Source of the DNA: an uncultured Armatimonadetes bacterium
Lineage (GTDB): Bacteria; Armatimonadota; UBA5829
Reading direction: 5' to 3'
DNA length: 64,000 nt
Assembly (NCBI GenBank): GCA_963711155.1
Contig: CAVQDB010000005.1
Coordinates: forward strand, 1,923,298 to 1,987,297
The first letter of the stretch is position 1. Each line of letters starts with the position of its first letter. Position numbers and translations under genes: made by a program. Under the pieces are notes generated by a model. That model had not been told where the DNA came from, did no database searches, and saw only the letters and a program-made list of their open reading frames with translations. This document shows positions 1,574 through 13,634 of the stretch, piece after piece.

Positions 1574-3088
1574 CGTTTTTTCCGCTTCTCGGTGCGGCGG
1601 CAATAATGTTCATCCCAAAGGAGAAGCCGGCGGCGATCAAGGCGGCGGCGATCGCGATCAGCCTGGTGCCGCTCGCGATGTCGGTCTGGCTGTGGTTCGC
1701 GTACAGCGCATCCGGCGGGCAGTTTCCCAAGGGCACGCAGTTCGAGAGCATCGCGCAGTGGATACCGGCGCTCGGCGTGACGTTCCACATGGGGGTGGAC
1801 GGCCTGTCCGTGCCGCTGGTGTTTCTCACGACGCTGCTGACCACGCTCAGCTTGATCTACTCGGTGTTCATCGAGACGCGGCCCAAGGAATACTTCTGGA
1901 TGTTTCTGCGTGCTCGAGACGGGGATGCTCGGGGTGTTCACGGCGCTGGACTTCGTGCTGTTCTTCGTGTTCTGGGAGGTGTCGCTGGTGCCGATGTATT
2001 TCCTGATCGGCATCTGGGGCGGCCCGCGCAGGGAATACGCGGCGATCAAGTTCTTCCTGTACACCATGGTCGCGAGTATGGCGATGCTGCTTGCGATCCT
2101 GGCGATGTACTTCTCGCCGGAGGTCCTGCGAATCACCGGCGGCCACCGCACGTTCGATATGATGGTCATCGCGCAGGCGCTGCCTTATGCAAAGAACGTG
2201 ATCGTGGGCGCGCTGGTGTTCTGGGGACTGTTCTTCGGGTTTGCGGTCAAGGTGCCGATGTTCCCGTTCCATACATGGCTGCCCGACGCCCACGTCGAGG
2301 CGCCGACGGCCGGCTCCGTGATACTTGCCGGCGTCTTGCTGAAGATGGGGACCTACGGGTTCATGCGAGTCCTGATGCCGATGATGCCGGTGCAGTTCGC
2401 GAGGTACTGGTTGATCATCGCCATCGTCTCGATTATCGCGATCATCTACGGCGCGTTCGTTGCGATGGCGCAGACCGACCTCAAGAAGCTGATCGCATAC
2501 TCGTCCGTGAACCACATGGGCTACGTGACGCTGGGCTGCGCGGTGGCGGGAGCGGCGGGCTATGGCATCCACATGAGCCATTCCGCGCGGACGCTTGCGC
2601 TGAACGGCGCGCAGATGCAGGTATTCAGCCACGGGCTTATCACGGGCGCATTGTTCTTCCTTGTGGGCGTTGTATATGAGCGCGCTCACACGCGCAATCT
2701 CGCCGATTTCGGCGGGCTTGGCGCGAGGGTGCCGGTATACGCGGGGATGCTGGCGTTTTGCAGCTTCGGCTCGCTGGGGCTGCCGGGTATGACGGGGTTC
2801 ATCGCGGAGCTTTCCGTGCTGACGGGCACATATAACGCGAGCGCGCTGCTTACAGGGCTGGCGTTGATAGGGATCGTGGTGACGGCGGCGTATATGCTTT
2901 GGATGCTGCAGCGGGTGCTGCTCGGCCCGCTGAACCCGAAATGGGACAAGATGCCGGACGCCAACGGCCGCGAGATCCTGAGCCTCGCGCCGCTGATGAC
3001 GCTGATGCTGCTGTTCGGCGTCTACCCCGGCCCGGTGTGGACGTTCTTTACGAACGCGTCGAATGCTATACTAGGAGTGATCCACTGA
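1543..3088 (+). CDS. nuoM: NADH-quinone oxidoreductase subunit M, split by one frameshift as assembled
   Basis: The first ~120 aa (MGSAYILPILTFFPLLGA...KEYFWMFL) lie in the ORF 1543 frame. The rest (LETGMLGVFTALDFVLFFVFWEVSLVPMYFLIGIWGG...) lies in the ORF 1910..3088 frame. One extra base near 1909. The start overlaps the nuoL stop. Confidence 0.85.
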
Positions 3089-3114
3089 TGATTTACGCCG
3101 TTCAACTTGCACAG

Positions 3115-3177
3115 CACGTCGTGCTGAACTTGATTCAGCATCCACGCCTGGGCCCTGAATCAAGTTCAGGGTGACGT
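3115..3177. repeat. REP-like double hairpin (CTGAAC..GTTCAG family), copy 1
   Basis: cacgtc-gTGCTGAActtgatTCAGCAtccacgcctgggcCCTGAAtcaagtTCAGGgt-gacgtg. Two hairpins are bracketed by inverted cacgtc/gacgtg. The architecture matches 27640..27701. Confidence 0.7.
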
Positions 3178-3228
3178 GATACAACTCACTGAGCGCAAAT
3201 CACTTAGCCTACGAAGCGGAGGCAGATC

Positions 3229-3531
3229 ATGAGGCGATTTCATCTGGATATATCGCTCGATAGTGTTGCAGAGATCGCAAAGAGATATCCTGTGAAGGAG
3301 CTTGCTCTGTTCGGATCCGTGCTGCGCGACGATTTCACGCCGGATAGCGACGTAGATGTATTGGTCGAGTTCGAGCCGGATGCTACGATCGGCTTTCTTG
3401 GCATGGCCGCATTGGCGCGCGAACTCTCCGCCGTCACCGGACGACAGGTCGATCTAGTTCCCAAAGCGGGGCTGAAACCCAGGATCAGGAAGCCGATACT
3501 CGACAGCGCACAGGTGATCTATGCGAGATGA
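3229..3531 (+). CDS. mntA: MNT-type nucleotidyltransferase antitoxin
   Basis: LFGSVLRDDFTPDSDVDVLVEF is the minimal pol-beta NTase signature. About 100 aa. It overlaps the downstream HEPN gene by 11 nt. Confidence 0.8.
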   Translation: MRRFHLDISLDSVAEIAKRYPVKELALFGSVLRDDFTPDSDVDVLVEFEPDATIGFLGMAALARELSAVTGRQVDLVPKAGLKPRIRKPILDSAQVIYAR

Positions 3532-6302: not shown

Positions 6303-7078
6303 GTGCGATATGGGCGGGGGAGAGGCTTCACGCTTGTGGAGCTGCTTGTTGTGATAGCTGTTATCGCGATACTGGCGTCGATTCTGTTTCCGGTGTTGGT
6401 CAACGCTAAGCAGGCGGCGCAGCGGGCACGGTGCCAGTCGAACCTCTCGCAGATCGGCAAGGCGTTCGAGTCTTACACCAGCGACTACAACGGCTGCTAT
6501 CCGAACCTCGGACAATCCGAGTGCACTCTGTGGATGGGGCGGTATTGGCGTGACCTGAAGCGCGAACCGGTGCACAAGTACGTGGTAGCGCTCGCAGTGC
6601 GGCGCGAATCAGACACGCGGGGATCAGATTCTGCGTGCCCCGCCGATCCTACGCCGCCCGGCATCTACTCGGGGACGTCCTACGCATATTCCGACGTGTT
6701 TCTATCATGACACCAGATCAGATCAATGCGATCAGCGACAGCAACTGCATCCGCAGCAAGTATGCGGCTACCAATCCCAAACTGCCGTGCGCGACGATCA
6801 GGACCTCCGACGCCAGGCATACGACGAAGAAGGCGCTGGTGACGGAGTACTGGACGCTGCACAGCGCGAAGCCCACGGTCGGCTGGTACGACGATCCAGC
6901 CGAGACCGGAAACGATCCCTGGAGCGGATCGCGGAACTATCTGTTCGCTGACGGGCACGTTGTGAATCTGCCCACGCGCAGGATCCATCCGGCGAGCAGC
7001 CCCGTCGTTTCGAGATCCCGGCTGCTGCCCGATATCAACCTGACCACCGACGGCATCGAGGGCAAGGACATCGACTGA
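6303..7078 (+). CDS. prepilin-type N-terminal cleavage/methylation domain protein (DUF1559-like), one frameshift as assembled
   Basis: RBS aaggagg, then GTG. GFTLVELLVVIAVIAILASILFPV class III signal. The C-terminal part in the ORF 6635 frame ends ...NYLFADGHVVNL (H-X9-DG-like). Shift near 6690. Confidence 0.7.
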
Positions 7079-7079
7079 A

Positions 7080-7923
7080 ATGCGCGACATACAGGCCGAG
7101 AAGATCACCGAAGGCGTCAAGCAGGCGTGCATCGATGCATGCCGCAACCTGCCTGATGACGTGCTCGACGCGCTGAAGCGGTCTCTTGAGATCGAGGACT
7201 CGCCCGCGGGCCGCGATGTGCTTGAACAGCTCATCGAAAACGCTCGCATAGCGCGCGAGGAGCAGATCCCGCTCTGTCAGGACACGGGCATCGCGGTCGT
7301 GTTCGTCGAGATCGGCCAGGACGCACACATCGCCGACGGCGATCTGCGCGAGGCCATCAATGAGGGCGTGCGCCGCGGCTACGTCGAGGGCTACCTGCGC
7401 AAGTCCGTCGTACCGGCATCCCCTGGACCGCGTCAACACCGAGGATAACACCCCCGCCGTCATCTACACCGAGATCGTGCCGGGAGACGGCCTCAAGATC
7501 GACGTCTGCCCGAAGGGCGGCGGATGCGAGAATATGAGCGCGCTGAAGATGCTTACTCCGGCGCACGGTCGCGAGGGCGTGAAGCGGTTCGTCGTGGATA
7601 CCGTGCGCGAAGCCGGGCCGAACCCCTGCCCTCCGACTATCGTGGGCGTGGGCCTCGGCGGCACGCTCGAAAAGGCCGCGCTCCTATCGAAGAAGGCAAT
7701 CCTGAGGCGCGTGGGTGAACCCAGCGCGAACCCGATCGACGCCGAGTTGGAGCGCGAGCTTCTCGAGGCGATAAACGAGACCGGCGTCGGGCCCGCAGGC
7801 TACGGTGGCCGCGTGACGTCGCTGGCGGTGCACGTCGAGTCATACCCGTGCCACATCGCCAGCCTGCCGGTGGCGATTACGATCCAGTGCCACGCGGCGA
7901 GACACAAGACATTCGAGATTTGA
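7080..7923 (+). CDS. class I Fe-S fumarate hydratase / tartrate dehydratase alpha subunit, one frameshift as assembled
   Basis: IPLCQDTGIAVVFVEIG and GYLRKSVV in the ORF 7080 frame. DPLDRVNTEDNTPAVIYTEIVPG...KGGGCENMS in the ORF 7360 frame. Extra c at ~7417. Confidence 0.8.
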
Positions 7924-7974
7924 GATTGCCAATTGTCGATTGACAATTGGCAATTGGCCGTCGATTCGAGGCTG

Positions 7975-8511
7975 ATGATCAAGCTTACGACACCACTGGC
8001 TGATTCGGATACCGAGCCGCTGCGCGCGGGGGACAGCGTGCTGCTGTCGGGCGTCGTGTATACGGCGCGGGATGCCGCCCACGCACGGCTGGTGCGATTG
8101 CTGGAGGAAGGCGAACCGCTGCCGATTGACCTCGCGGGCCAGGTGATCTACTACGTCGGGCCGACCCCCGCGCCGCCCGGACATGTCATCGGCGCGGCAG
8201 GACCGACCACGGCCGGCAGGATGGACTCGTTCACGCCCGCACTGCTCGAAGCGGGACTCAAGGGCATGATCGGCAAGGGCCTGCGCTCGCAGGAAGTCAG
8301 AGACGCCATCGTCAAGCACAAGGCCGTCTACTTCGCCGCGACCGGCGGCGCCGCCGCGCTGCTCGCCAAGCGCATCGTCTCCTGCGAGGTCGTCGCCTAC
8401 GAAGACCTCGGCTGCGAGGCAATCCACCGCCTCGAAGTCCGCGACCTGCCGCTCGTAGTCATCAATGATTGCATGGGTGGGGATTTCTATCGGAGAGAGT
8501 TTGAAGGTTAG
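7975..8511 (+). CDS. class I Fe-S fumarate hydratase beta subunit
   Basis: GVVYTARDAAHARL...YYVGPTPAPPGHVIGAAGPTTAGRMD...AVYFAATGGAAAL is the typical hydro-lyase beta type. ATG at 7975 lies inside ORF 7933..8511. Confidence 0.8.
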   Translation: MIKLTTPLADSDTEPLRAGDSVLLSGVVYTARDAAHARLVRLLEEGEPLPIDLAGQVIYYVGPTPAPPGHVIGAAGPTTAGRMDSFTPALLEAGLKGMIGKGLRSQEVRDAIVKHKAVYFAATGGAAALLAKRIVSCEVVAYEDLGCEAIHRLEVRDLPLVVINDCMGGDFYRREFEG

Positions 8512-8551
8512 AAGGTTGCAGGGTTAGAAGGTTTCCCGCGACTCTGTGCAC

Positions 8552-8579
8552 TTGACAGACGGGCAAACATGTATACAAT
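8552..8579 (+). promoter_or_regulatory. sigma70-like promoter candidate upstream of the TcmP cassette
   Basis: TTGACA (8552-8557), 16-nt spacer, TACAAT (8574-8579), in an AT-richer patch. Confidence 0.4.
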
Positions 8580-8614
8580 AGTCTGTATATACCTCATGCG
8601 GAAAGGGCCTGGGC

Positions 8615-9499
8615 TTGGCAGACACGAAGAGACCGTTGGGGTTTGGTGGTGACTGGACGGCGGAGAAGTTGGGGCGAGTGCGCAAGTACCTGAGCGCATA
8701 CGCGACTGCACTGAAGAACCAGCCGTTTAGGCTTACCTATATCGACGCGTTCGCAGGAACCGGATATTGCGGCAGAGGTCCCGAGGTAGCTCTTGATGCT
8801 CAACCGATTCCGGAACTGGCAGACAGCGAAACGCAAGCATTCCTCAAGGGTTCCGCCAGGATTGCTCTTGAGGTCGATCCGCCATTCCACGAGTTCATCT
8901 TCATTGACCGCGACCCCGCGAACTGCGCCGAACTTGGCAGCTTGAGTGACGAGTACCCAACCCTCAAGGACCGCATATCAGTCGTGAAGGCTGATGCCAA
9001 CGCTTACCTACAGAACCTGGCCGCGCACGACTGGATAGCGCGGCGGGAGCGTGCCGTGCTATTCCTAGACCCTTATGCCATGCAGGTTGACTGGGCTACG
9101 ATCCAAGCGGTCGCAAGGACCCGCGCGATCGATATGTGGTATCTGTTTCCTCTTGCCGCCGTGAACCGGCTACTGCGCAGGGACGCCAAGATAGACGAGG
9201 CATGGAGAGATCGCCTGAATCGCATCTTCGGAACCAGCGATTGGGAGGCGGCGTTCTATCAGCGCAGGGAAATGCAGACGCTGTTCGAGCAAGTCGAGTC
9301 GGTGGAGAAAGTTGCCACATTCGGGCGCATCAAAGAGTTCCTGCTGGAACGCCTGAGAGACGAGTTCGCTGATGTGGCTCAGAACCCGCTCGTACTGGAG
9401 AACAGCCGCGCGCCGCTCTTTCTCCTCTGCTTCGCCGTTGGCAACGAGAGAGGCGCAGCGCTGGCAGTGAAGATCGCTCAGCACATCCTGCGGAGATAG
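8615..9499 (+). CDS. tcmP: three-Cys-motif partner protein TcmP-like (Rossmann methyltransferase-like motifs)
   Basis: The N-terminus [24 protein letters not shown] matches my recollection of the TcmP family. [10 protein letters not shown] resembles SAM motif I and FLDPY a DPPY-like motif. It sits directly upstream of a DUF5131 gene, the family's usual partner. Confidence 0.6.
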
Positions 9500-9503
9500 A
9501 GCA

Positions 9504-10223
9504 ATGGCAACCAACACCTTGATAGAATGGACCGAATCGACATGGAACCCTGTAACGGGCTGCACCAAGGTCAGCGCGGGCTGTGCAAACTGCTACGCCG
9601 AGCGCATGGCAATGCGCCTGCAGGCAATGGGGCAGGCGAACTACCGCAACGGGTTCGCTGTCACGATGCACGAGCACGCGCTTGACCTGCCGCTGCGGTG
9701 GCGGAAGCCTCAGATGATCTTTGTGAACTCCATGAGCGATCTGTTCCACGAGGACGTGCCGGTCGAGTTCATTCTGCGAGTGTTTGAAGTAATGAGGCAA
9801 GCACACTGGCATCGATTTCAGATTCTGACAAAGCGATCCGCCCGGCTCGCCGAACTCGATCCGATACTGCCCTGGGCAGCAAACATCTGGATGGGCGTCA
9901 CCGTCGAGAACCAGGACTGCATGGCCCGCATCGGCGAACTCAAGAAATGCGGCGCTGCGGTCAAGTTCCTTTCACTTGAGCCGCTCCTCGGGCCGCTGCC
10001 GGACCTGCCCCTCGACGGCATCGATTGGGTGATAGTGGGCGGCGAGTCCGGCGTGGGCGCGCGGCCGATCTTGTCTGAATGGGTGACGGATATCCGGGAC
10101 CAGTGCATCGAATCCGACACGCCGTTCTTCTTTAAGCAGTGGGGCGGGGTCAACAAGAAGGCCGCCGGGCGCAAGCTCGACGACCGCGAATGGGACGAGA
10201 TGCCGGACCTCGCCGCCGGCTGA
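9504..10223 (+). CDS. DUF5131 (phage Gp37/Gp68) family protein
   Basis: [30 protein letters not shown] is the hallmark N-terminus. WIWMGVTVE and WVIVGGESG motifs. 4-nt gap to tcmP. Confidence 0.75.
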
Positions 10224-10227
10224 GCAC

Positions 10228-11328
10228 ATGAACACGATAGAAGGCACTGCCAAACAGCCTGGAATCGCGATCGCGGTGGCGGCGGTGGTTGATGCGAGAA
10301 GAGGCATCAACGCGGTGTCTCCCGCCCTGCTGCAGGAGGGCATATCGGCGCTGATGCGGGCGGCCAAGCCTGCCGACTACCCCGAGGCGATAATCGCGTG
10401 CGACAGCCTCGCCGTTGGCACAATCACGAGAATTCCGGGGATCAGCACGGCCGGCATCGCGGCGGAATCCGACACGGACGTGCCGGGAATCGACATCGAA
10501 ACGCCGTGCGTGATCGGCCTGACGGACCTGCTGAGATCGATCTCCGAGGGCGACATTCTGATCGTGGACGGTTACAGAGGCGAGGTTCACATCGACCCCG
10601 ACCCTCAAACGGTAATGCACTACCAGCAGGCGCAGGAGCGCCGCAACATGCGCGAGAAGGTCTTCATCACCTCCGAGCACATTCCCGCGCGCACGCAGTC
10701 TGGGGAGACGGTGCTGGTCTACGCTCAGCTATCCAAAAAAGGTGACAGACACCTTTTAGATTCGTGCTCAGAAAAGGTGTCTGTCACCTTTTTGGAGACG
10801 GCGCTTGAGGCGGGCGCGGACGGGCTGCTGGTGGATGCGCGCGGAATGGCGGACGTGGGCGGCGTTTCGGGTGAGATCCTGCGCGAGGCGGCCGGGAAGC
10901 CGGTGGTGTTGGTGGTGGATATGCACGTTATGGACGTGCTGCGCGCGGCGATGGCGTACTGCGCGCCGGGACAGGTGACGCTCGTCGGCGATGACTCTGA
11001 GCATCTGGCATCGCAGGTCGAGTCGGCGATGGACATTATCGTGCTCGAAGCACTGCAGCTGGACATCGAAGCGCCCGATGTCAAAGTCGGCGGCATCGCG
11101 CACGCGGGCATGTGCGATCCCAACGACCCGTCGCTGATCGCGATCGACGCGGCCGACTGCGGCATTGAGGACTTGCCCCAAATGCGTGAGGAAAGAATAG
11201 TCATAATCGGCGGCCGGCTCAAGGCAATCGAGCCGCTGGTGAAGGCCGGCGTCAGGCGGATCGCGGTCGAGCCCGAACTCGTAGGCGACGCCAAGTACGC
11301 GATACGTTCGATAGCACCCGAGGGCTGA
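10228..11328 (+). CDS. PEP-utilising enzyme (PtsI)-like protein lacking an obvious phospho-His motif
   Basis: Swivel-domain-like CVIGLTDLLRSISEGDILIVDGYRGEVHIDPDP. No GGxTSH motif seen. 4-nt gap to the DUF5131 gene. Carries the 63-nt palindrome at 10733..10795. Confidence 0.45.
   Translation: MNTIEGTAKQPGIAIAVAAVVDARRGINAVSPALLQEGISALMRAAKPADYPEAIIACDSLAVGTITRIPGISTAGIAAESDTDVPGIDIETPCVIGLTDLLRSISEGDILIVDGYRGEVHIDPDPQTVMHYQQAQERRNMREKVFITSEHIPARTQSGETVLVYAQLSKKGDRHLLDSCSEKVSVTFLETALEAGADGLLVDARGMADVGGVSGEILREAAGKPVVLVVDMHVMDVLRAAMAYCAPGQVTLVGDDSEHLASQVESAMDIIVLEALQLDIEAPDVKVGGIAHAGMCDPNDPSLIAIDAADCGIEDLPQMREERIVIIGGRLKAIEPLVKAGVRRIAVEPELVGDAKYAIRSIAPEG
10733..10795. repeat. 63-nt AT-rich palindrome inserted in-frame in the PtsI-like CDS
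   Basis: CCAAAAAAGGTGACAGACACCTTTT, 14-nt loop, AAAAGGTGTCTGTCACCTTTTTGG. Exactly 21 codons (SKKGDRHLLDSCSEKVSVTFL). Confidence 0.8.
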
Positions 11329-11334
11329 TCACGA

Positions 11335-11412
11335 AGGGAGAATCGGGAAAGGGAGAAAATCAGAAATGGAGAAAGGGCTTTCTCCCTTTCTAGTTTTCCC
11401 CTTTTTCCGATG
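11335..11412. repeat. purine-rich imperfect palindrome (GAAGGGAGAATCGG family), copy B
   Basis: gaagggagaatcgggaaagggagaaaatcagaaatggagaaaggg / ctttctccctttctagttttcccctttttccgatg, 7 nt after the stop of 10228..11328. Confidence 0.55.
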
Positions 11413-11434: not shown

Positions 11435-12409
11435 TTGAAGTTTGCTGCGTGGATGGCGTATCACATGGAATCGCGGGAGATCGTGGACGACTACATCAGG
11501 CGGGCCGCGGTCGCCCTGCGCGGGCACGAGTTCGTGATATGCGAGAATGAGGAGTCGATCAAGCGCGAGATCGCCGACGCCGATGCGGTCATCTGCTGGA
11601 AGATGACGCCGGAGGTGTTCGCGTGCGCGCGGAAGCTGAAGTGGATTCAGTTCGGCAGCGCCGGCATCGACCACACGATCTTCCCCGAGCTGCTCGCCAG
11701 CGACGTGATCCTCACAACAATGAGCGGCATCCACGCCATTCCCGTCTCCGAGCACGTGCTTGCGCTGATGCTCGCGATGACCCGCCGTCTCGATCTCGCG
11801 CACAGGCTTCAACTCGAACACCGCTTCGAGCGCACGGAGTTGGCATGGACCGCGGGGGAATTGGCCGGCAAGACCCTCGGCATCATCGGCCTGGGCAATA
11901 TCGGCCTGGCAATCGCGCACCTGGCGCGGGCGTTCGGGATGCGGGTGGTCGGCACGAAGCGGACCGCTGATGGTGACCTGCCCGGCGTGGATCGCGTCTA
12001 CGCGCCCGACGAGCTCGACGACATGCTGCCGGAAGTGGACTGCCTGGTGATGGTCGTGCCCCTGACGGAGGCCACCCGCGCGCTGATCGGGAGGCGCGAA
12101 ATCGAGCTGATGAAGCCGGGCTCGTATCTGGTAAACGTCGCGCGCGGCGCGATGCTCGACCACGATGCGCTCGGTGACGCCATTCGATCGGGCCAACTCG
12201 CCGGCGCGGCACTCGACGTCTTCCCGGAGGAGCCGCTGCCGCCCGACAGCCCGATCTACGACCTGCCCAACCTCATTATGACCCCACACACCGGCAGCTC
12301 CGGCAGGCGCTACGGCGAGCGCGCCGCGCAGGTCTTCGAGCGCAACCTCTCCTCGTTTGCCGCCGGCCACGAGATGATGAACGTGTACGACAGGGGAAGG
12401 GGATATTAG
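11435..12409 (+). CDS. D-isomer-specific 2-hydroxyacid dehydrogenase (NAD-binding)
   Basis: GKTLGIIGLGNIGLAIAHLARAFGMRVVG dinucleotide fold. VNVARGAMLD and PNLIMTPH motifs. Start uncertain (TTG 11435 or ATG 11450). Confidence 0.8.
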   Translation: MKFAAWMAYHMESREIVDDYIRRAAVALRGHEFVICENEESIKREIADADAVICWKMTPEVFACARKLKWIQFGSAGIDHTIFPELLASDVILTTMSGIHAIPVSEHVLALMLAMTRRLDLAHRLQLEHRFERTELAWTAGELAGKTLGIIGLGNIGLAIAHLARAFGMRVVGTKRTADGDLPGVDRVYAPDELDDMLPEVDCLVMVVPLTEATRALIGRREIELMKPGSYLVNVARGAMLDHDALGDAIRSGQLAGAALDVFPEEPLPPDSPIYDLPNLIMTPHTGSSGRRYGERAAQVFERNLSSFAAGHEMMNVYDRGRGY

Positions 12410-12492: not shown

Positions 12493-13634
12493 ATTGCTCT
12501 TCCGCCCACGCGTGCGCCGCCCGCCGCTCCTCCCACGGCGGCGGTTCGGGGATGCCGAAGGTCTCGCGCTTGCGCTTGAGGTAGTAGAGGTAGTTCTCGT
12601 AGGTTACGTCCGGCGGGACGCGGTGGTCCACGTGCGGGACGCAGCCGCCCTGCTCCACCAGCGGCCTTATCCGCTCGATCTCTCTGTCGATCGCGTCCTT
12701 TCCGGCGATGAGCTGGGTCTTGTCCACGCCACCGGCAAGCAGCACCCTCCGGCCGAACTGCTCCCGCATCCAGTAGGGGTCCGTGCCGCCGCGAATCTCC
12801 AGCGGGAACATGATGTTGACACCTCCGTCCAGCCAGCAATCGACCACGCAGTTGATGTTGCCGTCGCAATCGACTATCGCGAACTCGCAGCCGTTCGCGC
12901 GAAAGAGGTCGGTAAGCCTCTTGTAGTGCGGGGTCAGCCACCTGCGGAACATCGACGGCGATATGATCGGGCCGTGGTTGAACGCCATGTCCTCCCAGAA
13001 GGTCAGCAGATCGAACTGCACCTCGGTCGCGGCGCGCTTGAGAAGCTGGTATTGGAACTCGGTGAGATAGTCGATCATCTCCTCGACCCACGCCGGGGTC
13101 GTCCATGCACGCGATTGCTATGTTCTCGAACCCCATCCAGTCGCGAATCCAGCCGAACAGGCTGCCCGCGCCTATGCACAACGACGCGCTCCGGATTGCG
13201 TACCCGCTGCTTCCACGCCTCCCAGTCCGCGTCACTGGGATAGCGGCTGGGATCGGCGGGATCGAACTTCGTCTTGAACTCGTCCCAATCCTGGCGGGTC
13301 TCGATCGGGAACTTGAGGTAGAGCGGGATCGAGGAGGAGCCGTCCGTGTAGATCATCTTGGTGGCGCCGTCGTGGTCGATGATCTTGCGGTAGCGGTCGC
13401 CTTCCTCAAGGACCTTGTACTCGAATCCGGGAATGGCGCCGTTGCGCACCGGCGCGCCCATCTTGCCCTCAAACCGAAGAAGACGTCGGCCCTGCCGTTG
13501 TTGTTGACGTATTCCGGCAGGCCCTGTTTGTGCCACTCGGGGAAGGTCTCGTTCCAGTAGCCGAACTCCTCGTCCGGCACGTGGTCCACGGGCTGGAAGC
13601 GCATGCACGCCAGCCACCGTTCTCTGCTGTTCAT
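12491..13634 (-). CDS. uroporphyrinogen decarboxylase (URO-D) family protein, three frameshifts as assembled
   Basis: Pieces in four frames join into MNSRERWLACMRFQPVDHVPDEEFGYW... FEGKMGAP...KIIDHDG... SLFGWIRDWMGFENIAIACMDDPG... MIDYLTEF...GGCVPHVDHRVPPDV. Shifts at ~13470, ~13185 and ~13093. Confidence 0.65.

Follow-up and report, generated by a model that had tools for sequence, protein, structure and literature searches.

A promoter-carrying TcmP/DUF5131 gene pair very probably inserted upstream of a resident Enzyme I-like gene in an Armatimonadota chromosome

A two-gene unit that encodes TcmP and DUF5131 proteins and carries its own promoter was, in all probability, inserted directly upstream of an unrelated resident gene in the chromosome of an uncultured Armatimonadetes bacterium (contig CAVQDB010000005.1; the whole 64,000-nucleotide [nt] stretch analyzed is referred to as the window). 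The three open reading frames (ORFs) concerned share the plus strand and lie between genes for a fumarate hydratase beta subunit (fumB) and a D-2-hydroxyacid dehydrogenase, flanks that were already named as fumarate hydratase and dehydrogenase genes in an earlier interpretation based on the DNA letters and ORF translations (the sequence-only reading) and that were confirmed here by family matches. The earlier interpretation had further regarded the three ORFs as a single cassette, in which a protein resembling Enzyme I (EI, PtsI) of the phosphotransferase system (PTS) may have been recruited to the TcmP/DUF5131 pair. This part of the proposal was not sustained, as orthologous loci were found to run from fumB to the PtsI-like gene (termed here mini Enzyme I, or mini-EI) and on to the dehydrogenase gene without the pair, while the pair was found to stand alone elsewhere. 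The three-gene arrangement is best viewed as a by-product, because the unit appears to have inserted between fumB and the resident mini-EI gene; its combination with mini-EI would then be an accident of insertion. The features of the locus are listed below, where labels such as L015 denote comparison loci or contigs that were fetched for the analysis.

7933-8511, plus strand: fumB, resident gene at the left flank of the proposed insertion (PF05683, 5e-58; NF005310, 7e-80)
8503-8533, plus strand: GAAGGTT(N) octamer repeats from the host sequence that separates fumB and mini-EI, at the end of host homology as aligned with L015 and L018
8548-8592, plus strand: cassette promoter (-35 TTGACA at 8552-8557, 16-nt spacer, -10 TACAAT at 8574-8579)
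8615-9499, plus strand: tcmP (294 aa, TTG start), first gene of the pair, predicted class I S-adenosylmethionine (SAM)-methyltransferase fold (TIGR04474, 1e-61; PDC-M41A, 5.5e-113)
9504-10223, plus strand: DUF5131 (phage Gp37/Gp68) gene (239 aa), second gene of the pair, predicted radical-SAM subgroup (PF07505, 2e-99; PDC-M41B, 9.3e-120; phrog_2045, 6e-95)
10228-11328, plus strand: resident mini-EI (PtsI-like) gene (366 aa), outside the cassette, with orthologues of 69 to 72% identity at the same place in L015 and L017 to L019, which lack the pair
11368-11385, plus strand: short hairpin between the mini-EI and dehydrogenase genes, terminator-like by consensus match only
11435-12409, plus strand: D-2-hydroxyacid dehydrogenase gene, conserved downstream neighbor of the mini-EI gene (PF02826, 1e-55)

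The pair lies at a site that is empty in related genomes

Loci from close Armatimonadota relatives (L015 and L017 to L019) were found to share one gene order: antiporter subunit genes, a 213-aa ORF, a prepilin-like gene, fumA, fumB, the mini-EI gene, the dehydrogenase gene, and, on the minus strand, URO-D and PAS/SpoIIE genes. The window displays the same order except for the inserted pair. In the relatives, the gap from fumB to the mini-EI gene is 39 to 97 nt and both tcmP and the DUF5131 gene are absent. The mini-EI protein of the window is 72% identical to that of L015 and 69% identical to those of L017 to L019; the flanking proteins are 80 to 90% identical, including FumB, which shares 82 to 87% identity with its L015 and L018 orthologues in an alignment that begins near 7975. 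When the window was aligned with L015 and L018, host DNA homology was found to stop at about 8533, past the GAAGGTT repeats that follow the fumB stop codon, and to resume at the ATG of the mini-EI gene (10228). The interior was matched by loci of another kind: positions 8550-10180 are, at the DNA level, 75% identical to L020 and 71% identical to L021, and the homology to these cassettes starts at GCACTTGACA (approximately 8548), three bases before the -35 element, and ends a few bases past the DUF5131 stop codon. The inserted unit thus very probably measures about 1.68 kb (approximately 8548-10227) and comprises tcmP and the DUF5131 gene preceded by a promoter of the sigma-70 type. On this account, a mobile unit of this size would have entered the Armatimonadota chromosome in the interval that runs from the fumB stop codon to the mini-EI start codon. 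Comparison of a filled with an empty site would then give the exact extent of the TcmP/DUF5131 module, its promoter included.

The neighborhoods of the two components were examined separately and found not to overlap. The co-occurrence of a PtsI-like gene with TcmP/DUF5131, which had been put forward as a check on the three-gene proposal, was not observed: neither TcmP nor DUF5131 was found in any of the 21 mini-EI loci fetched, mini-EI was found in none of the nine TcmP or DUF5131 loci fetched, and no TcmP or DUF5131 gene was detected within 10 kb of a mini-EI homologue in 14 species-representative genomes. The dehydrogenase gene, by comparison, is located directly 3′ of the mini-EI homologue in 15 of the 21 loci, with the two ORFs overlapping or abutting in L006, L013, and L017; a third mini-EI clade has different neighbors. 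The mini-EI gene belongs with the downstream D-2-hydroxyacid dehydrogenase gene and not with the pair.

Two other explanations for the arrangement were weighed against an insertion. If the three genes formed one functional cassette, with the histidine-less PtsI-like protein acting as an adaptor or pseudoenzyme recruited to TcmP and DUF5131, the common strand, the single strong promoter, and the tight packing would be readily understood: both inter-ORF gaps are exactly 4 nt (TAG-AGCA-ATG between tcmP and the DUF5131 gene, 9499/9504; TGA-GCAC-ATG between the DUF5131 and mini-EI genes, 10223/10228), as the sequence-only reading had reported, and no terminator-like site was found between the DUF5131 and mini-EI genes or anywhere before 11368. 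However, the PtsI-like gene occupies the orthologous site where the pair is missing, the two do not co-occur in any of the 30 loci, the homology to other cassettes runs out at the stop codon of the DUF5131 gene, and PtsI-like family members are found only in a lineage-specific chromosomal setting that has a different conserved neighbor; a single functional cassette is on these grounds scarcely credible. The second explanation, that the pair is ancestral at this site and the relatives have since deleted it, with no gain in the lineage of the window, would be in keeping with the lack of visible insertion scars (target duplications or terminal repeats), and the intergenic (GAAGGTT)n repeats could promote deletions. 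Yet the pair is absent from two separate close relatives and from all of the more distant mini-EI clades, cassettes with the same promoter are found elsewhere in unrelated contexts, and the closest TcmP homologues (75 to 77% identical) reside in other neighborhoods, compared with 80 to 90% identity for the flanking housekeeping genes. Gain in the lineage of the window is more parsimonious than repeated loss, and an ancestral origin appears highly improbable. Two observations nonetheless weigh against the insertion that we favor. No convincing direct or inverted terminal repeats or target duplication were detected around 8300-10500 and no recombinase gene flanks the unit. In addition, the difference in base composition is small: the AT-richer patch noted previously is real but modest, with the insert at 59.4% GC and the flanks at 63.6% and 63.3% (a gap of about 4 points), and with the promoter area at about 53%.

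The arrival of the unit may have altered how the mini-EI gene is expressed. In L018, GAAGG-rich repeats stop 5 nt before the mini-EI ATG and probably serve as its ribosome-binding site, whereas in the window the GAAGG-rich repeats are now 1.7 kb upstream of the mini-EI gene. With no terminator-like site found in between and just 4 nt separating the two ORFs, the mini-EI gene is probably read through from the cassette promoter; it would be transcribed from this promoter and translated by coupling. The expression of mini-EI in the window is thus probably a case of promoter capture and not of functional recruitment. A 1.7-kb module that lands between a ribosome-binding region and a start codon can in this way give rise to an apparent operon, and tight spacing with a common promoter is, as this locus shows, no proof of a functional unit.

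Further variation was observed in the same neighborhood. The fumB/mini-EI intergenic region of L015 (7899-8000) forms a long predicted hairpin in which GAAGGTTN octamers are paired with NAACCTTC octamers (-57.5 kcal/mol, z -6.4); in L018 and in the window (8503-8533), only the left-arm repeats of this hairpin are retained. With its many repeats, the region may readily undergo rearrangement or insertion. L015 also carries an 83-aa ORF and a HepT-like toxin gene between its antiporter subunit genes (2774-3386), which are not present in L017 or L018 and constitute another small module inserted in this conserved neighborhood.

The cassette carries a conserved promoter

The TTGACA-16-TACAAT promoter that the sequence-only reading had placed ahead of the three ORFs was supported by comparison with other cassettes. 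The element matches 11 of 12 consensus positions and was the top site in 6.2 kb; two promoter-like sites were found in this region against 1.5 expected, a count that is not significant by itself. The block GCACTTGACA...GTATACAATAGTCTGTATA is conserved in L020, L021, and L032, the contexts of which are unrelated, and the -35 element, the -10 element, and the AGTCTGTATA that follows are all conserved in these loci. The promoter is considered credible because it is conserved in the three other cassettes. A palindrome, TATACA-N6-TGTATA (8572-8589), overlaps the -10 element in the company of TGTATA direct repeats (8570-8592) and is likewise conserved in the three other cassettes; from its sequence and position, it may represent a putative operator for some regulator. 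A LexA-type box was considered for this palindrome and dropped, as the palindrome did not match any such box known to us. When metagenomes were scanned with the promoter 19-mer GTATACAATAGTCTGTATA, eight matches were obtained, of which one (L032) was a cassette. Six others (L026 to L030 and L033) are AT-rich contigs with near-identical flanks, and in L028 the 19-mer is coding sequence for AIQTIVY, the C-terminus of a large ORF; these matches are coding-sequence coincidences that are unrelated to the cassette. The remaining match, L031, was likewise set aside as unrelated.

TcmP and DUF5131 are predicted SAM-using enzymes

Both members of the pair were assigned to the families that had been proposed for them. 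TcmP scored 209.1 bits against TIGR04474 (cutoff of 53; 260 of 263 model positions), and DUF5131 scored 332.5 bits against PF07505 (threshold of 28.9) over the full model (positions 1-243 of 243). The motifs previously pointed out in TcmP, a SAM-motif-I-like stretch (residues 42-51) and FLDPY (residues 150-154), are present, and D44, F46, and G48 of motif I as well as D152 and P153 of the DPY(G) motif IV were found to be invariant in 49 homologues. No match was obtained when the TcmP sequence was compared with Protein Data Bank (PDB) chains. The AlphaFold2 (AF2) model (predicted local distance difference test [pLDDT] score of 85.6) was used as a query in Foldseek, and 64 PDB matches were obtained at an E-value of ≤1e-3; among the 50 listed, nearly all were methyltransferases or spermidine synthases, with Trm1 (3axs), RlmJ (6qdx), spermidine synthase, and RsmD/YhhF (2fpo) as the best (E-values of 4.5e-6 to 1e-4; TM-scores of 0.25 to 0.45). 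TcmP is predicted from this model to adopt a Rossmann-like class I SAM-methyltransferase fold; its motif I is rich in glycine, and its motif IV is of the acidic/proline type. The likeness is to class I RNA N-methyltransferases, namely Trm1 (m2,2G26), RlmJ (m6A2030), and RsmD/YhhF (m2G966); motif I of TcmP reads D-A-F-A-G-T-G, and its D-P-Y-G occupies the motif place of the (D/N)PP(Y/F) or DPFG of Trm1/RlmJ/RsmD-type enzymes. However, TcmP is only 12 to 13% identical to Trm1, RlmJ, and RsmD, the TM-scores lie in the low range given above, and TcmP has an extra C-terminal beta/alpha region.

The clustered-cysteine N-terminus described for DUF5131 was also found, in residues 19-32, the stretch that the sequence-only reading had quoted. 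The cysteines are arranged as C20-x6-C27-x2-C30, and all three are invariant in four cassettes. DUF5131 additionally showed a weak match (1e-20) to TIGR04471, radical SAM mobile pair protein A; no solved structure in the PDB was matched by its sequence. DUF5131 is listed as the radical-SAM subgroup Megacluster-5-2, next to the MJ0683-like proteins (5-1) and spore photoproduct lyase (5-3) (PMC9477430). It shares with this part of the superfamily (Megacluster-5 of RadicalSAM.org) a clustered, invariant N-terminal cysteine triad, but differs from the canonical C-x3-C-x2-C of radical-SAM enzymes in that six residues separate the first two cysteines and no CxxxCxxC is found. DUF5131 is hence a predicted member of a radical-SAM subgroup with non-canonical cysteine spacing, as far as its sequence can tell.

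The pair recurs in plasmids and phages and is a defense candidate

The two proteins match the components of PADLOC PDC-M41 on adjoining ORFs (M41A, 5.5e-113; M41B, 9.3e-120). PDC-M41 is one of 145 untested candidates listed by Payne et al. (bioRxiv 10.1101/2024.01.29.577857); it was proposed as a defense candidate because its genes are embedded in BREX, DISARM, or type I restriction-modification (RM) systems (guilt-by-embedding). The description of TcmP and DUF5131 as a recurrent, phage-associated pair was borne out. TcmP adjoins a PF07505 gene among unrelated genes in L020, L021, L023, L036, and L037, and the families occur in phages as well. The neighbors of the pair in L020 and L021 are wholly unlike those in the window and include, in one contig, a prephenate dehydratase gene and, in the other, a sulfatase gene. 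An SNF2 helicase gene and a nucleotidyltransferase/HepT pair precede the TcmP/DUF5131 pair in L023, and on a Leisingera plasmid (L036), it adjoins Abi genes. As in these TIGR04474/PF07505 pairs and in PDC-M41, the genes in the window are adjacent, on the same strand, 4 nt apart, and form a stand-alone two-gene module. The differences from other pairs are of detail: the window has tcmP before the DUF5131 gene, while on the alphaproteobacterial plasmids of Leisingera and Acetobacter this order is reversed; the clade of the window has the conserved promoter and palindrome; and the unit in the window lies outside any recognizable defense island. There is no essential difference between the pair in the window and the known TcmP/DUF5131 module.

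Variants of the pairing were also noted. On a plasmid of Nostoc sp. C052 (L035, 4823-6885), a TcmP of 53% identity is encoded beside a BREX-1 system, and its neighbor is a divergently transcribed 324-aa "radical SAM protein" and not a detectable DUF5131; this may reflect a partner swap, or the gene table of the plasmid may be incomplete. In Gordonia phage Jablanski (L034, 33173-35042), the DUF5131 gene is positioned near the integrase gene and beside an annotated methyltransferase gene. The DUF5131 gene is near the integrase gene in Gordonia phages BaxterFox and PantheRoc too, and in some Gordonia phages it is convergent with the gene of a distant TcmP homologue (25% identity). These arrangements suggest that radical-SAM and methyltransferase-like proteins are also repeatedly paired in phages, in a different form.

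What the pair does was considered from these contexts and folds. That its two SAM-using enzymes modify DNA or RNA, much as the sequence-only reading had suggested, is plausible and is our best reading, which we hold with slightly less confidence than doubt; in such a scheme, the pair would chemically modify nucleic acid for phage defense or for self-marking. A role in defense is likely in view of where the genes are found: PDC-M41 components are embedded in BREX, DISARM, and type I RM systems, plasmids carry the pair alongside Abi genes and TcmP alongside BREX, and, in Sinorhizobium meliloti, TcmP (SMa2243) is encoded close to the Hna defense gene (SMa2245) and rises with Hna in a nolR+ strain (PMC12445080). 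The pair could instead be (i) a mobile nucleic-acid repair module, for instance one that mends damaged DNA much as spore photoproduct lyase does; (ii) a mobile housekeeping module, for instance for tRNA or rRNA modification; or (iii) a phage-derived module for anti-restriction modification of DNA. Such functions would suit the placement of DUF5131, which shares its radical-SAM megacluster with spore photoproduct lyase, the tRNA and rRNA methyltransferases among the best structural matches of TcmP, the frequency of DUF5131 in Mycobacterium and Gordonia phages, and the lack of a defense island around the pair in the window, L020, and L021. The genomic associations above speak against them, as does the location of the DUF5131 gene of Gordonia phages by the integrase region, which often holds lysogen-expressed genes; functions outside defense are, on balance, rather unlikely, though they merit consideration. 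A further finding counts against a defense role: DUF5131 was found in 180 phage records, mainly of Mycobacterium and Gordonia phages, and TcmP in only five, which implies that TcmP is not always needed and that defense is not the sole possibility. No functional or experimental study of TcmP, DUF5131, or PDC-M41 was found in the literature searched. The remark of the sequence-only reading on the novelty of the pair calls for a qualification, since the pair itself is catalogued (it defines TIGR04474 and is listed as PDC-M41). The fold-level, methyltransferase-type support for TcmP narrows the hypotheses for candidate PDC-M41.

Mini-EI represents an unannotated family of truncated Enzyme I-like proteins

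The mini-EI protein is related to EI at the level of profiles and fold. It scored 21.7 bits against PF00391, just under the threshold of 23.1 (some homologues have a precomputed PF00391 match), and 35.7 bits against TIGR01417, far below the cutoff of 341.7, with only residues 83-172 aligned. The profile of the family matched EI (2hro) with an E-value of 1.6e-14, positions 81-214 of the profile being aligned to EI residues 189-332. A confident AF2 model (pLDDT of 92.3) returned EI structures first in Foldseek (2wqd and 2hwg), then pyruvate phosphate dikinase (PPDK), and then small TIM barrels; the N-terminal domain of EI (5woy and 2ezb) was also among the fold matches. The phosphoenolpyruvate (PEP)-utilizer swivel-domain signature recognized earlier, ILIVDGYRGEVHIDPDP, is found at residues 110-126, and the earlier remark that the GGxTSH phospho-histidine motif is missing also proved correct: the family has AAESDxD in place of the GGxTSH of EI, and position 82, which is aligned with the EI phospho-histidine, varies across the family (D/S/A/P/E/G). 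What mini-EI has in common with EI and other PEP-utilizing enzymes (PPDK and PEP synthase) is the swivel domain, the linker helix, and two strands, the first and the last, of the PEP-binding barrel. It differs from true EI (P0350) in that the helical HPr-binding subdomain is missing (a gap of about 100 residues), the PEP-binding TIM barrel is shorter by about 100 residues, with the IRTLDIGGDK stretch and later segments deleted in the alignment, and the arginine of the YRTE motif is not conserved. We take the deleted stretch and segments to be catalytic or active-site segments of EI.

The homologues of mini-EI, about 93 in number, all carry the label hypothetical; those with a name come without exception from Armatimonadota or an unclassified bacterium. 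An exhaustive profile search returned 64 representative clusters at an E-value of ≤1e-30 (P0217 to P0349) plus many full-length matches of 350 to 420 aa with weaker scores. None of the ten mini-EI proteins that were scanned had a Pfam family above threshold; one protein of the wider family is labeled "phosphohistidine swiveling domain-containing protein" by JGI. These histidine-less, truncated mini-EI proteins thus appear by their sequences to form an unannotated family, now recognized and linked to a dehydrogenase. In the protein from the window, a 15-residue insertion, RHLLDSCSEKVSVTF (residues 174-188; 10747-10791), is not shared by any of 22 aligned homologues and corresponds to a low-confidence loop of the model.

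The loss of phosphotransfer is well supported by these sequence comparisons, and mini-EI most likely no longer transfers phosphoryl groups; it is probably a non-catalytic or re-purposed partner of the dehydrogenase. Retained catalysis of another kind could, on the other hand, be indicated by the residues that are invariant in an alignment of 17 mini-EI sequences (G6, D114, G118, P124, T156, D198, G223, G341, and K356, with H151 nearly so), and in particular by the polar ones, D114, T156, D198, K356, and H151, which are kept in distant members. This finding weighs against a pseudoenzyme and, along with the confident model and the tight coupling of the gene to that of a conserved dehydrogenase, would be expected if the reduced TIM barrel of mini-EI housed a new enzymatic chemistry, which might, for example, be directed at a 2-oxo or 2-hydroxy acid in concert with the dehydrogenase. 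However, the IRTLDIGGDK stretch and the later segments, presumably of the active site, are deleted relative to true EI, the YRTE arginine is not conserved, and no known substrate-binding motif was recognized; an active mini-EI is accordingly a doubtful proposition, if one that deserves to be kept in mind. Overall, two more far-reaching readings may be put forward. In the first, the pair would be a self-contained, recombinase-less, promoter-carrying mobile module whose N-methyltransferase-like and non-canonical radical-SAM enzymes would jointly install a new nucleic-acid modification for phage defense; in the second, mini-EI would represent an undescribed family derived from PTS EI that would have lost phosphotransfer and taken the D-2-hydroxyacid dehydrogenase as its partner. 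These readings are advanced tentatively and are, in our estimate, somewhat improbable.

Integrity of the flanking genes

Three genes of the neighborhood that are single intact ORFs in L015 are split across frames in the window: the prepilin-like gene (6312-7072) has a break near 6701-6707, fumA (7080-7920) is split near 7410, and URO-D (12500-13634, minus strand) has two frame breaks. These splits relative to L015 suggest indel errors of the assembly or pseudogenes. By the same comparison with L015, the four genes of interest were found to be uninterrupted.

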